Both the position numbers and the translations under genes were made by a program. DNA of 64,000 nt from Escherichia coli. GTDB taxonomy: Bacteria; Pseudomonadota; Gammaproteobacteria; Enterobacterales; Enterobacteriaceae. Location of the stretch: assembly GCF_030384885.1 (NCBI RefSeq), contig NZ_CP128613.1; one strand, written 5' to 3'. Below the pieces are notes generated by a model that was not told the origin of the DNA, made no database searches, and saw only the letters and a program-made list of their open reading frames with translations. This document shows positions 4,023-17,800 of this stretch, piece by piece (positions within the stretch are counted from its first letter, which is position 1; each line of letters begins with the position of its first letter).

Positions 4023-4319
4023 TTAATGGGAGGCAAGTTCCCGGAAAAAGGCAGGATTTTCTTTAATTGTGGCAAGTACTTTTGCAGCCAATCCCGTAGG
4101 ATTTCTTCGCTTCGATTCCCAGCTTTTAATGGTATCCACACTGGTTCCCAGAGCTTTTGCCATCTCACTTTGCGAAACGTTGAGTTGCTCACGAATAGCT
4201 TTAACATCCGCAATTTCGTAGCGGGTCACCCGTGCAGGTTCTTTTAAACCTTGTTTAATCTCGACAGCCTCTTCCAGAGAGGTTTTCAACTCATCAAAAA
4301 AACTCATTTTATACCTCAC
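4023..4319 (-). CDS. HTH (XRE-like) antitoxin of a type II toxin-antitoxin pair, HigA-like
   Basis: 98-aa ORF with a C-terminal helix-turn-helix (...SQSEMAKALGTSVDTIKSWESKRR...); lies directly downstream of, and overlaps, the toxin ORF. Confidence 0.65.
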   Translation of the reverse strand: MRYKMSFFDELKTSLEEAVEIKQGLKEPARVTRYEIADVKAIREQLNVSQSEMAKALGTSVDTIKSWESKRRNPTGLAAKVLATIKENPAFFRELASH

Positions 4320-4641
4320 CTTTGAGCAGTTTCGTCAACTTCTTTAGTTGAGCTTTTTCCGTATCTGTCAGACTGTCTTTGGCATTCTTCGGATAGGCCA
4401 TAATCAAATAAATAATCTCTTCCGTCGCCAGAAAGTAAATTATTCTGACACTGCCACTTTTTCCCTGTGAACCCGCAGCCATTCGGACTTTACGCAATCC
4501 ACCAGTCTGCTGAATGAGATCACCTTTATCGGGAGTTCCGATGAGTTCTTTTTGCAATTCCTTTAATTCATCATCGGTTGCAATCTGCTTGATCTGACGC
4601 GTAAACATTGGCGTCTCTATAAATATTATCGCCTTGCCCAT
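4309..4641 (-). CDS. RelE/ParE-superfamily toxin, HigB-2-like
   Basis: About 110 aa when started at MGKAIIF (the track ORF carries an N-terminal extension). Contains ...GGLRKVRMAAGSQGKSGSVRIIYF..., resembling the GKSGGxRxIY signature of HigB-2-type killer proteins. GGGAGGGG Shine-Dalgarno 4 nt upstream of the ATG. Toxin precedes antitoxin. Confidence 0.65.
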   Translation of the reverse strand: MGKAIIFIETPMFTRQIKQIATDDELKELQKELIGTPDKGDLIQQTGGLRKVRMAAGSQGKSGSVRIIYFLATEEIIYLIMAYPKNAKDSLTDTEKAQLKKLTKLLKGEV

Positions 4642-4732
4642 TACCCCTCCCTGGCAGGTACATTGTACACCAAAATGGAGTACTAAGTACACTTTTGAAT
4701 CAGTAATATCACTCAACATCTTATAAAGATGA

Positions 4733-9162: not shown

Positions 9163-10179
9163 ATGTCCACATTACGCCTGCTCATCTCTGACTCTTACGA
9201 TCCGTGGTTTAACCTGGCGGTGGAGGAGTGTATTTTTCGCCAGATGCCCGCCACGCAGCGCGTTTTGTTTCTCTGGCGCAATGCCGACACGGTAGTGATT
9301 GGTCGCGCGCAGAACCCGTGGAAAGAGTGTAATACCCGGCGGATGGAAGAAGATAACGTTCGCCTGGCACGGCGCAGTAGCGGTGGCGGCGCGGTGTTCC
9401 ACGATCTCGGCAATACCTGTTTTACCTTCATGGCTGGCAAGCCGGAATACGATAAAACGATCTCCACCTCGATTGTGCTCAATGCACTGAACGCGCTCGG
9501 TGTCAGCGCCGAAGCGTCCGGACGTAACGATTTGGTGGTGAAAACCGCCGAAGGCGACCGTAAAGTCTCAGGCTCGGCCTATCGCGAAACCAAAGATCGT
9601 GGCTTCCATCACGGCACCTTGCTACTCAATGCCGACCTTAGCCGCCTGGCAAACTATCTCAACCCGGATAAAAAGAAACTGGCGGCGAAAGGCATTACGT
9701 CGGTACGTTCCCGCGTGACCAATCTGACCGAATTGCTGCCGGGAATTACCCACGAGCAGGTTTGCGAAGCCATAACCGAGGCCTTTTTCGCCCATTATGG
9801 CGAGCGTGTAGAAGCGGAAATTATCTCCCCGGACAAAACGCCGGACTTGCCGAACTTCGCCGAAACCTTTGCCCGCCAGAGTAGCTGGGAATGGAATTTC
9901 GGACAGGCTCCAGCGTTCTCGCATCTGCTGGATGAACGCTTTACCTGGGGCGGCGTAGAACTGCATTTCGACGTCGAAAAAGGCCATATCACCCGCGCCC
10001 AGGTGTTTACCGATAGCCTCAACCCCGCACCTCTGGAAGCTCTCGCCGGACGACTGCAAGGCTGCCTGTACCGCGCTGACATGCTGCAACAAGAGTGTGA
10101 AGCGCTGTTGGTTGACTTCCCTGAACAGGAAAAAGAGCTAAGGGAGTTGTCGACGTGGATGGCAGGGGCGGTGCGGTAA
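9163..10179 (+). CDS. lplA: Lipoate-protein ligase A
   Basis: 338-aa ORF beginning [25 protein letters not shown]...; synteny. Confidence 0.93.
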
Positions 10180-10210
10180 CTCGCTGATTAAAATATCCAG
10201 GGAAGGAAAT

Positions 10211-10474
10211 ATGATCGATCTGAAGAACCAGGAACGGGAGATTATCAATTTAATGTTCAGCCAGGGTATATCCTGGCTAACCGCCGTGCGTATCAGGCAT
10301 AAACTATCACTTGCTGAAGTTAGTAAAATGTTGGGTATCTCGATTAATTCTCTAAAACAAATCGAAAAGACGGAACGGCTTAGTTCAAACATCAAAAACA
10401 AAATGGCAGGAATTTATGGTTGTCTGCCAGAGTTGCTGATATGCCCTTACTGGATGACGGCTGAACATAAATGA
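10211..10474 (+). CDS. Small XRE-type HTH protein, possibly a remnant of or replacement for yjjJ
   Basis: 87-aa ORF with an RBS-like GGAAGGAAAT before the ATG and a helix-turn-helix (LSLAEVSKMLGISINSLKQIEK). It sits where K-12 has the roughly 1.3-kb HipA-like gene yjjJ; the lplA–deoD gap here is only about 455 bp. Confidence 0.4.
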   Translation: MIDLKNQEREIINLMFSQGISWLTAVRIRHKLSLAEVSKMLGISINSLKQIEKTERLSSNIKNKMAGIYGCLPELLICPYWMTAEHK

Positions 10475-10572
10475 ATAGATTCGTGAATAGATACTCGAAT
10501 GGATTTAATTTTCTATCCATATGAAAAATAATAGTGAATCTATAAATCAGTTGCTATTGATGAATAAATACT

Positions 10573-10601
10573 AAAAAGCCGGAGCGGTCTCCCGCTCCGG
10601 C
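10573..10601 (-). terminator. Rho-independent terminator of the deo operon (downstream of deoD)
   Basis: GC-rich hairpin GCCGGAGCGG-TCT-CCCGCTCCGGC followed by a U-tract on the minus strand. Confidence 0.7.
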
Positions 10602-10634
10602 TTCACACGACAATCGCCTTTCAGCGAAACACAA

Positions 10635-11354
10635 TTACTCTTTATCGCCCAGCAGAACGGATTCCAGTGCGATTTTGATCATGTCGTTGAAGGTGGTCTG
10701 ACGCTCAGCGGCAGTGGTCTGCTCGTGAGTGCGGATGTGGTCAGACACGGTGCAGATGGTCAGGGCTTTCGCGCCGAATTCTGCAGCGACGCCGTAGATA
10801 CCAGCAGCTTCCATTTCCACACCGAGAATGCCGTATTTTTCCATCACGTCGAACATTTCGCCGTCCGGAGAGTAGAACAGGTCAGCGGAGAACAGGTTAC
10901 CAACGCGCGCATCAATGCCCAGTGCTTTAGCTGCATCTACTGCGTTACGCACCATGTCGAAGTCAGCGATAGCTGCAAAGTCATGGTCTTTAAAACGGAT
11001 GCGGTTAACTTTGGAATCGGTGCAGGCACCCATACCAATCACTACGTCACGCAGTTTTACGTGCGGCAGAACTGCACCACAGGAACCAACGCGAATGATT
11101 TTCTTCACGCCGAAATCGGTGATCAGTTCTTTAGTGTAGATGGAGCAGGACGGGATACCCATACCGTGGCCCATTACAGAAATTTTGCGGCCTTTGTAAG
11201 TACCGGTGAAGCCCAGCATACCGCGAACGTTGTTCACTTCACGAGCATCTTCAAGGAAAGTTTCAGCAATATACTTCGCACGCAGCGGGTCGCCTGGCAT
11301 CAAAACTACGTCAGCGAAATCGCCCATTTCTGCATTAATGTGTGGAGTAGCCAT
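10635..11354 (-). CDS. deoD: Purine nucleoside phosphorylase DeoD
   Basis: 239 aa from [17 protein letters not shown]...; the track ORF is N-terminally over-extended. Confidence 0.95.
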
Positions 11355-12685: not shown

Positions 12686-14008
12686 TTATTCGCTGATACG
12701 GCGATAGACAGTCGGTGTGCTTTCCGGTGCTTTATCGGCAAGTTTAATTGCCGCTTTCACCGCTTTCGCCGCTTCCTGCCAGCTGTTTTCGTCTTTCGCG
12801 TGGATAACCGCCAGCGGACGCTGACCGTCTACCTGGTCGCCCAGACGCGCCATATCAGTAAAGCCGACGCTGTAATCGATGGTGTCAGATGCCTGACGGC
12901 GACCGCCGCCCATTGCAACCACTGCCATTCCCAGCGCGCGGGTATCCATTTCACTGACAAAACCTTCGGTATCAGCATAGACTGCTTTCGTCAGCATCGC
13001 TGTCGGCAGATACTTCGCGTAGTTCTCAACGAAGTCGGTCGGGCCTTTTTGTGCCGCTACCATACGACCAAAGACTTCTGCCGCTTTACCGTTGTCCAGC
13101 ACCGCCTGCAATTTCGCGCGCGCTTCGGCGTCATCTTTCGCCAGTTTGCCGGAGATCAACATCTCCACGCACAGTGCCATCGTGACATCAAACAGACGCG
13201 GGTTACGATACTCACCAGTCAGGAACTGCACCGCTTCACGAACTTCAACCGCGTTACCGGCACTGGAGGCCAGCACCTGATTCATGTCGGTGAGTAGCGC
13301 GGTGGTGCGCACGCCAGCACCGTTAGCCACGCCAACAATCGCTTCGGCAAGGGCTTCAGAGAGTTCGTAGGTCGGCATAAACGCGCCGCTACCGACTTTC
13401 ACGTCCATCACCAGCGCATCCAGACCTTCCGCCAGTTTCTTCGCCAGGATCGAGGCGGTGATAAGCGGGATGGAATCCACGGTTGCGGTAATGTCGCGGG
13501 TCGCATAGAAACGTTTATCCGCCGGAGCCAGCGAGCTGGTCTGGCCGATAATCGCCACGCCAACATCTTTAATAATTTCGCGGAAACGGTTGTCATCCGG
13601 GAAGATGTCGAAGCCAGGGATGGATTCCAGTTTGTCGAGCGTACCGCCAGTATGGCCGAGGCCGCGACCGGAGATCATCGGAATATAGCCGCCGCAGGCA
13701 GCCACCATCGGCCCTAACATCAGCGAAGTCACATCGCCGACGCCGCCGGTGGAGTGTTTATCAACAATCGGGCCATTCAGATGCAGGCTTTTCCAGTCGA
13801 GAACGGTTCCTGAATCTCGCATCGCCATGGTCAGCGAGACACGCTCCGGCATTGTCATATCGTGGAAGAAAATGGTCATCGCGAGGGCGGCAATCTGCCC
13901 TTCGGAGATAGTGTTGTCGCGAATGCCGTTGATAAAGAAGCGAATTTCTTCATCGCTCAGCGCATGACCATCACGTTTTTTACGAATAATTTCTTGTGCG
14001 AGAAACAA
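12686..14008 (-). CDS. deoA: Thymidine phosphorylase DeoA
   Basis: 440-aa ORF beginning [29 protein letters not shown]... Confidence 0.95.
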
Positions 14009-14147
14009 GGTAACCTCCCGTGGAATAAGTTTGAAGGCGTTGTTGCCAGATGGCGGATGTTGTTATTGCCTGATGCAATGCTGACGCATCTTATCAGGCC
14101 TACAGGGGTACTCGACCCATAGCATCCACCCTCTGGCAAAAGGCAGC

Positions 14148-14927
14148 TTAGTAGCTGCTGGCGCTCTTACCGTCGCCGTGGCCCAGCGCTTTCAGCAGGC
14201 TTGCCAGCAGGCTGGAAGCACCAAAGCGGTAGTGACGCGCATCAGCCCAGTCAGCACCGAACAGTTCATCTGCAATCGCGAGATATTTCTGCGCATCTTC
14301 CGCAGTACGCACGCCGCCCGCCGGTTTGAAACCAACGGTTTTCTCTACGCCCATATCACGGATCACTTCCATCATGATGCGCGCGCTTTCCGGCGTCGCG
14401 TTCACTGCTACTTTACCGGTAGAGGTTTTGATGAAATCAGCACCCGCTTTAATGGATATTTCAGACGCTTTGCGGATCAGCGCTTCGTCTTTCAGTTCGC
14501 CGGTTTCGATGATCACTTTCAGCAGTACATTCGCTGCTGCGCAAGCCTCTTTACAGGCTTTCACCAGATCAAAACCAACCTGCTCGTTACCCGCCATCAG
14601 TGCACGGTACGGGAACACCACATCAACTTCATCGGCACCGTAGGCGATTGCCGCACGGGTTTCTGCCAGCGCGATTTCGATGTCGTCGTTACCGTGTGGG
14701 AAGTTAGTTACCGTAGCGATACGGATTTCCGGGGTGCCCTGCTCTTTCAGCGTTTTGCGAGCAATCGGGATAAAGCGAGGATAGATACAGATAGCGGCGG
14801 TATTACCGACCGGAGTTTTGGCCTGATGACACAGAGCGATCACTTTCTCGTCGGTATCGTCGTCATTCAGGGTGGTCAGGTCCATCAATTTCAGTGCACG
14901 CAGGCTGCTTGCTTTCAGATCAGTCAT
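14148..14927 (-). CDS. deoC: Deoxyribose-phosphate aldolase DeoC
   Basis: 259 aa from [26 protein letters not shown]... Confidence 0.95.
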
Positions 14928-17572: not shown

Positions 17573-17800
17573 ATGCCGGATGCGGCCTACGGTTCGGCAC
17601 AGACTTGTAGGCATGATAAAACGCGTCAAGCGTCGCATCAGGCATTGTGCGCCAACTGCCGGATGCGGCGTGAACGCCTTATCCGGCCTACGGTTCGGCA
17701 CAGACTTGTAGGCATGATAAGACGCGTCAGCGTCGCATCAGGCATTGTGCGTCGACTGCCGGATGCGGCGTGAACGCCTTATCCGGCTTACGAAGGGCAA
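17573..17800. repeat. REP/BIME cluster
   Basis: Two near-identical copies of a roughly 95-bp unit containing GCCGGATGCGGCGTGAACGCCTTATCCGGCCTAC palindromic elements. Confidence 0.8.

Follow-up and report, generated by a model that had tools for sequence, protein, structure and literature searches.

A 64,000-nucleotide (nt) stretch of Escherichia coli DNA (contig NZ_CP128613.1 of RefSeq assembly GCF_030384885.1), here called the window, lacks the hipH (yjjJ) gene that K-12 carries between lplA and deoD, and holds in its place an unrelated gene of 87 codons on the opposite strand, to which we refer as ORF87 (for open reading frame). We read this lplA-deoD interval (10180-10634, 455 bp) as the commoner of two old alternative alleles, in which a 286-bp segment bearing ORF87 replaces the hipH coding sequence and lies next to the orphaned hipH promoter and operator with the terminator, and we put the probability of this reading at about 0.75. 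HipH, known from work on K-12 and on uropathogenic E. coli (UPEC), is regarded there as a solitary toxin without a linked antitoxin, and has been proposed as an anti-persister target (PMC8262856, PMC9948734, PMC11452175). The searchable literature on hipH treats it as a solitary K-12 gene and does not mention the alternative allele.

Two alleles between lplA and deoD

In MG1655 the gene order is deoD (+), hipH/yjjJ (+, 1332 bp) and lplA (-), with the stop codons of hipH and lplA abutting, in agreement with the statement made when the window was read from its sequence alone (a yjjJ gene of about 1.3 kb between deoD and lplA). The order in the window is lplA (+), ORF87 (+), deoD (-), and K-12 hipH corresponds to the window minus strand, with its 5' end beside deoD. 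Alignment to K-12 gives collinear homology up to position 10178 and again from 10466; positions 10180-10465 have no K-12 counterpart, and the hipH coding sequence has none in the window, as judged by tblastn and blastn. The swap is base-exact, with 1329 bp of hipH beyond its ATG on one side and 286 bp with an oppositely oriented ORF on the other, and the 169-bp remainder of the interval, common to hipH strains, comprises the hipH control region and the deoD terminator. The two versions have in common the slot, which the lplA stop and the deoD terminator delimit, the position of the hipH ATG, three tandem TGAATAGAT repeats, a -35-like box and a distal repeat, and they differ in what fills the slot, namely the coding sequence of a solitary HipA-family kinase toxin with an N-terminal helix-turn-helix (HTH) in K-12 and the unrelated 87-codon gene on the other strand in the window. 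A BLASTP comparison of ORF87 with HipH returned nothing, the best E-value being 0.17 over 6 residues; the N-terminal HTH of HipH (...SQATFSRL...FGKARATRYAL...) differs in sequence from ORF87, and the Pfam profile HipA_C matches K-12 HipH only.

The sequence-only reading had described an interval of about 455 bp containing an 87-amino-acid (aa) HTH ORF with a good ribosome-binding site, an AT-rich stretch with repeated GAATA-type motifs and the deoD terminator, and both coordinates and sequence confirm this description. The alignment with K-12 yjjJ that it proposed gave a divided answer, as the ORF is without similarity to YjjJ whereas the hipH 5' control region and a relic of the hipH ATG are shared. 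It had further considered that the ORF might lack similarity to the YjjJ N-terminus, which is what we found, and that the interval might be identical to that of K-12, which it is not, yjjJ being located there.

The frequency of the two alleles was surveyed in 5426 complete E. coli genomes, in which the ORF87 segment was scored by 291 bp specific to the ORF. This segment was present in 4073 genomes and hipH in 1348, so that the two counts sum to 5421, and a sensitive search with the hipH 5' end found no hipH-like DNA in the remaining genomes. ORF87 and hipH were found together in none of the loci inspected, and their counts are complementary. Carriers of hipH include K-12, UTI89, S88 and EC958, and carriers of ORF87 include BL21(DE3), RR1, IAI1, O157 Sakai, O55:H7, E2348/69, SE15 and CE10; both alleles thus occur within single phylogroups (K-12 versus BL21 and RR1; UTI89 and EC958 versus SE15 and E2348/69). 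The interval of the window is 100 % identical in 19 listed genomes, among them 2013C-4282, ECONIH1, MS6198 and IMT16316. K-12 therefore carries the minority allele, and the ORF87 version is a common variant and not a deletion scar. The hipH-less state noticed in the sequence-only reading is real; taking K-12 as the reference state was misleading, as hipH is the minority allele (25 %). A true 5' remnant of hipH was seen in one genome, WB61 (our locus L102, 2501-2692), where 146 nt from the 5' end of hipH are retained on the deoD strand. A plasmid location of ORF87 in E. coli was considered and rejected, since all such records are 0.4-4.9 Mb long and look like mis-filed chromosome pieces. The presence of hipH in only about one quarter of complete E. 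coli genomes limits how far findings on hipH can be generalised across strains.

The same alternatives are met outside E. coli. We scored the lplA neighbourhoods of 80 species representatives of Enterobacteriaceae for DeoD, HipH and ORF87. Most species (Salmonella, most Citrobacter, Enterobacter, Klebsiella, Kluyvera and others) have an empty gap of 50-110 bp with a terminator or a repetitive extragenic palindromic (REP) element only. A hipH gene in the same place and orientation is found in E. albertii (95 % aa identity) and, at 60-69 %, in a Citrobacter, Kosakonia, Pseudocitrobacter, Leclercia and Silvania. An ORF87 homologue on the lplA strand is found in the GTDB E. coli representative (84 %), in Superficieibacter sp. 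and the metagenome-assembled genome UBA3516 (44-47 %) and in one metagenome contig (40 %). Other cargo at the junction consists of fimbrial genes or operons, a REP-associated transposase and lipoproteins, and scars or remnants are present in E. whittamii, Kosakonia quasisacchari and Kosakonia sp. S29; Phytobacter diazotrophicus (L029) keeps HipH residues 1-49. Because the same alternatives recur in other genera, these comparisons indicate that the lplA/deoD junction is an old, general insertion hot spot and that the hipH and ORF87 states are both ancient.

Some occupants of the junction can be specified further. Citrobacter koseri and several Enterobacter (L012, L050, L057, L058, from the lplA stop on; L031, L063) have either a chaperone-usher fimbrial operon or genes for single fimbrial subunits, and Pseudocitrobacter vendiensis and Kluyvera georgiana (L034, L082) a REP-associated tyrosine transposase. 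In E. whittamii (L005, 5010-5100) the site is empty, with TTGATGAAT fused to the terminator, which looks like a deletion scar that includes part of the distal repeat.

In carrying two unrelated cargos within the same flanks, the site resembles other replacement polymorphisms at E. coli hot spots, which are kept by homologous recombination in conserved flanks. It differs from them in that a single coding sequence is swapped, with base-exact edges at a stop and a start codon, and in that one cargo lies beside the retained regulatory region of the other. Identity to K-12 in the flanks is about 95 %, slightly below the value of about 96 % in the wider region; this peak of flank divergence is too slight for us to claim a strong signature of balancing selection. 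We also attempted to map a recombination tract with two genomes labelled as sequence type 131 (ST131) that carry opposite alleles, and rejected this approach as the two are 2-5 % different over the whole 30 kb, which leaves no tract readable.

The features of the interval and its two neighbours are collected in Table 1. ORF87 starts 31 bp 3' of the lplA stop, with no terminator in the gap, and its TGA stop lies inside the first TGAATAGAT repeat. The 100 bp that follow ORF87 (10475-10574) have a G+C content of 24 %, compared with 51 % over the entire window. The deoD terminator hairpin is flanked on its other side by an A-run, which could let it stop lplA-ORF87 transcripts too. An Rfam scan of 9900-10900 gave a sub-threshold chance match on the terminator and nothing else. 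Two further ORFs lie on the minus strand, at 10392-10520 and 10138-10401, of which the 42-aa one is not conserved in L004.

Table 1 Features of the lplA-deoD interval and its flanking genes (window positions).
Feature	Position	Strand	Remarks
lplA (lipoate-protein ligase A)	9163-10179	+	stop codon 10177-10179; left edge of the allele-specific segment
Allele-specific segment, 286 bp, 41 % G+C	10180-10465		replaces the 1329-bp K-12 hipH coding sequence; without DNA similarity to K-12
Shine-Dalgarno-like AAGGA	10203-10207	+	3 nt 5' of the ORF87 ATG; read from the sequence
ORF87	10211-10474	+	ATG start, 87 codons, TGA stop, intact; predicted XRE/Cro-type HTH protein
hipH start-codon relic	10466-10468	-	CAT on the + strand; first triplet shared with K-12; overlaps ORF87 codon His86; from the K-12 alignment and the same position in other genera
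Three tandem 9-mers, 12-bp spacing	10472-10504		TGAATAGAT at 10472, TGAATAGAT at 10484, CGAATGGAT at 10496; presumed HipH operator array
Conserved box ATGAAAAATAATAG	10521-10534	-	minus strand reads ...TTTTTCA, the predicted yjjJ promoter -35 (TTTTCA)
Fourth, distal repeat TGAATAAAT	10561-10569		adjoins the terminator
deoD terminator	10575-10604	-	G+C-rich hairpin, 13 pairs; T-run on the deoD (minus) strand
deoD (purine nucleoside phosphorylase)	10635-11354	-

The repeat array beside ORF87

In order to characterise the region between ORF87 and deoD, the deoD-proximal part of 14 loci, comprising both cargo types and several genera, was aligned. Its architecture is conserved and reads (CAT) nnn, three copies of TGAATAGATnnn, about 13 nt, ATGAAAnnTAnAG, about 30 nt, ATGAATAGATACT and the terminator, the sequence between these blocks being diverged and specific to the allele type. 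The repeat region upstream of the hipH ATG aligns between K-12 and six other hipH-bearing species. UBA3516 matches at 34 of the 36 repeat positions, despite a diverged spacer and an ORF87 protein only 45 % identical to that of the window. At least 5249 of the 5426 E. coli genomes have the three-repeat block, each at one locus, with at least 95 % identity in 4607. Elsewhere in the window the repeat motif is not enriched (12 matches with at most one mismatch, 12.1 expected). To our knowledge, TGAATAGAT fits none of the sites of Cra, ArgR, OxyR, Fur or HipB.

The repeats also occur away from this junction. Viral contigs were scanned for two tandem repeats, and of the 89 matches four, on IMG/VR contigs, have no lplA/deoD match (L107, 3807-3827; L116, 1340-1360; L145, 2289-2309; L188, around 10097). 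All four carry three ATCTATTCA repeats with 12-bp spacing together with HipH homologues of 35 % identity, with 17 nt separating the last repeat from the start codon of the homologue in L107 and L116. The distant homologues of L107 and L116 retain the S-Q-x-T-x-S-R helix, and neither SQATFSRL, the putative recognition helix, nor the segment FGKARATRYAL varies among the HipH proteins of seven Enterobacteriaceae. Because contigs unrelated to this locus have the array ahead of such distant HipH homologues (35 % identity), we conclude from these comparisons that the repeats travel with hipH and are a feature of the HipH family beyond the lplA-deoD site; as the best reading, we take them to be the probable operator of the HipH N-terminal HTH. 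The conserved operator-like array, with three TGAATAGAT repeats and a distal copy, makes HipH autoregulation directly testable, and strains with ORF87 offer natural 'hipH-swapped' strains for comparison. Seven other IMG/VR contigs (L120, L121, L122, L158, L162, L182, L192) have long tandem arrays of the 12-mer TGAATAGATAAA without a homologue of HipH or ORF87, and may be unrelated.

Published data are in favour of a promoter in this region. Genomic SELEX found sites for RpoD-holoenzyme and H-NS in the deoD-yjjJ spacer, with a predicted promoter TTTTCA-18-TCTATT (PMC3946193), and given this prediction the conserved box would be the -35 element, and the -10 element would lie inside the third repeat. 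Control of hipH by cyclic di-GMP maps to the hipH promoter region (PMC11452175), and yjjJ-lplA is among the K-12 gene pairs with overlapping transcription, or excludons (PMC12288877). Beside hipH the conserved box reads TGAAA(A/T)GTA(A/T)AG in five of the seven aligned hipH loci, with Citrobacter and Kosakonia differing, and beside ORF87 it reads TGAAAA(A/T)TA... in all five aligned ORF87 loci, which alters the predicted hipH -35 region.

Judging from the alignments, the interval does hold a relic of hipH, namely its control region and start codon in the AT-rich stretch with the GAATA-type motifs, and this relic is not ORF87. Because the hipH control region is retained beside ORF87, it is likely that hipH and its control region were first at the site and that the ORF87 segment later took the place of the coding sequence.

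ORF87 and its possible role

ORF87 is annotated by PGAP in the identical genomes as WP_000566246.1, with the RefSeq name 'sigma factor-like HTH DNA-binding protein'. The ratio of non-synonymous to synonymous substitution rates (dN/dS) is 0.14-0.27 in pairwise comparisons within E. coli, against 0.01-0.03 for lplA, and 0.15-0.33 in nine of ten pairs between genera, with 0.60 in the tenth. Both the frame and its length (86-87 aa) are kept in five diverged lineages. Given a dN/dS well below 1, the preservation of length and frame, and homologues of 40-47 % identity at the same site, sequence evolution shows that ORF87 is a real protein-coding gene under purifying selection. A literature search for the locus names ECs5344, Z5987 and Z5986 returned nothing relevant.

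No named family accommodates the protein. Of the Pfam profiles only Sigma70_r4 exceeds its cut-off, and marginally (25.3 bits, cut-off 24.1), while HTH_3 (20.8, cut-off 23) and HTH_25 (20.9, cut-off 24.6) stay below theirs and HTH_19 lies just below; the Superficieibacter homologue is likewise below the HTH profile cut-offs. NCBIfam and PADLOC gave only generic sub-threshold HTH matches, the models for NadS, HigA, MqsA and PezA were far below their cut-offs, and BLASTP gave no alignment to E. coli HipB. An AlphaFold2 model (mean predicted local distance difference test score, pLDDT, of 71) has five helices (4-17, 22-30, 34-41, 45-54, 59-69), helices 2 and 3 forming the HTH. The top 33 Foldseek matches of this model in the PDB are all of XRE/Cro type, with probabilities of 0.89-1.0 and every E-value at or above 0.04, and include NHTF, SinR, P22 C2, HigA, C-proteins, CapH, DdrO and HipB of Legionella. 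ORF87 is therefore a predicted XRE/Cro-type HTH protein. We considered and rejected a sigma-70 factor, since the protein has only 87 aa and no region 2, its score with the sigma70-ECF (extracytoplasmic function) model is 18 bits against a cut-off of 42.9, and its fold matches are of XRE type. Because the structural matches are XRE/Cro-type domains, the 'sigma factor-like' name is a naming artefact.

Two database searches traced full-length relatives no further than Escherichia/Shigella and a few contigs of Enterobacteriaceae. One of these searches was an exhaustive profile search of 1.8 billion protein representatives, which beyond the full-length relatives returned generic XRE domains. The next relatives, at 30-38 % identity, are longer HTH proteins with an additional N-terminal domain that ORF87 lacks, and some of them have their genes downstream of RelE/HigB-type toxin genes, on phages and plasmids. 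No toxin gene lies beside ORF87, whose neighbours are lplA and deoD, and the interval has no toxin-like ORF. In size and predicted five-helix fold ORF87 is thus like the XRE/Cro-C1 repressors and type II antitoxins (HigA, HipB, the C-domain of MqsA, NadS, P22 C2, the N-domain of SinR), and weak profile matches to HTH_3, HTH_19, HTH_31, NadS, HigA and MqsA point the same way; it differs from these families in lacking an adjoining toxin and an N-terminal extension, and in having Sigma70_r4 as its only marginal match above a cut-off.

Given the 31-bp gap, the Shine-Dalgarno motif and the absence of a terminator between the two genes, ORF87 is probably co-transcribed with lplA, and its product is most likely a small transcriptional regulator, which would act as a dimeric DNA-binding repressor. 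One of the two suggestions made in the sequence-only reading, an unrelated small regulator, is supported by the lack of HipH similarity together with the predicted XRE/Cro-type fold. The most likely target of such a repressor would be the neighbouring orphan hipH promoter, which if left unrepressed would fire antisense into ORF87 and lplA; this assignment is tentative, at well below even odds, and its own operon or an unlinked site are alternative targets. The conservation of the repeats in ORF87 lineages without HipH may possibly reflect binding by ORF87, retention of the promoter for convergent transcription into lplA, or an unlinked host factor. A bolder version, which we think unlikely, takes the control module as a cargo-independent unit under selection in both alleles, occupied by the HipH HTH in hipH strains and taken over elsewhere by ORF87, which would control antisense transcription into lplA. 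If true, one regulatory switch would accept either a toxin kinase or a small repressor as its occupant, in a balanced polymorphism that is ancient and trans-species. As it stands, ORF87 is an ordinary-looking XRE regulator that has been inactivated in many lineages, and its identification is useful rather than surprising.

Several observations weigh against this interpretation. With respect to the history of the site, the direction of the swap is one that we infer only. In a simple consensus scan no minus-strand promoter was recognised in the window copy, and the third repeat, which is expected to hold the -10 element, is mutated to CGAATGGAT in the window. With respect to binding of the repeats by ORF87, XRE dimers usually bind palindromes, whereas these are direct repeats with 12-bp spacing; different genera have different predicted recognition helices (ISINSLKQ versus ITPDALKR) next to unchanged repeats, and in one locus (L101) the ORF87 homologue is intact and the adjoining repeat array is almost gone. 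With respect to the gene itself, an exact 36-mer with TAG at codon 50 is present in 1691 of the 4073 carriers (the IAI1 allele class, annotated 'internal stop'); a 290-nt class of ORF87, found in 2 of 60 evenly sampled rows (about 3 %), was frameshifted in the example inspected, and in one genome, MB22 (L091, 2532-3995), an ISKpn26 insertion (IS5 family) splits the gene. About 45 % of E. coli carriers are thus without an intact ORF87, the window copy being intact, and because 1691 of the 4073 carriers have the codon-50 stop, ORF87 looks dispensable in E. coli.

These losses bear directly on the strongest rival to a working ORF87, namely that it is a functionless, decaying passenger, an orphan antitoxin-like HTH domain from an earlier insertion, in which case the interval would matter only as a hipH-less state. 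The high proportion of disrupted copies fits this explanation, as do the nearest outside relatives, which follow RelE/HigB-type toxins and have the N-terminal domain missing in ORF87, and the absence of an adjoining toxin gene. However, both the comparisons within E. coli and nine of the ten pairs between genera give dN/dS values well below 1, and the 86-87 aa frame has been kept in five diverged lineages; moreover, the stop at codon 50 is one mutation common to a single allele class, and may be one recent event that has risen with a successful lineage. We regard the passenger explanation as a real possibility that stays well short of even odds.

An action in trans on HipH is doubtful. It was reported that HipB, an XRE protein of 88 aa, rescues the toxicity of YjjJ overproduction (PMC9948734), and ORF87, which is similar to HipB in size (87 versus 88 aa) and of XRE type, and which adjoins a HipH operator array conserved in HipH-less lineages, could in this light be an XRE-type neutraliser or 'anti-addiction' factor, or a stand-in repressor of the HipH operator. 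Nevertheless, ORF87 and hipH never occurred together in the inspected loci and have complementary counts, ORF87 and HipB have no sequence similarity, and both the variable recognition helix facing an invariant operator and the L101 locus, which has the ORF without the array, speak against such a role.

A chance reading frame in AT-rich intergenic DNA would account for the shortness of ORF87, an HTH_3 score below the Pfam cut-off and the lack of a named family, but we consider it very improbable in view of the homologues of 40-47 % at the same site with the frame kept, dN/dS values of 0.15-0.33 in nine of ten pairs, the predicted five-helix XRE fold and the upstream Shine-Dalgarno motif. Refuted, and least credible of all, is the proposal in the sequence-only reading that ORF87 is a 5' remnant of a deleted HipA-like gene, hipH/yjjJ, which would have kept its HTH and lost its kinase. 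An N-terminal HTH is indeed present in HipH (PMC8262856), the interval sits where K-12 has hipH, and real remnants are known (WB61, and Phytobacter L029), but ORF87 is encoded on the other strand, begins beside lplA and not beside deoD, and has no DNA or protein similarity to hipH, the 286 bp not being derived from it, whereas genuine remnants keep hipH codons 1-49 on the deoD strand.

Other sites in the window

Three further sites in the window deserve mention. Between ettA and nadR, on the minus strand (4023-4719), lie genes for a NadS-like HTH antitoxin (about 98 aa; HTH_3, E-value 3e-10) and a RelE/ParE-family toxin (RelE, E-value 8.5e-10); the segment 3993-4732 has no K-12 counterpart, and this pair is also annotated in an ST131-labelled genome. 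The deoC-deoA spacer (13866-14150) is 59-83 % identical to K-12, with flanks at 96-99 %, and is another small spacer that has been replaced or rearranged. Finally, the yjjV-yjjW spacer (17580-17792) contains tandem repeats of about 100 bp, which give multiple offset BLAST matches to K-12 and other strains.

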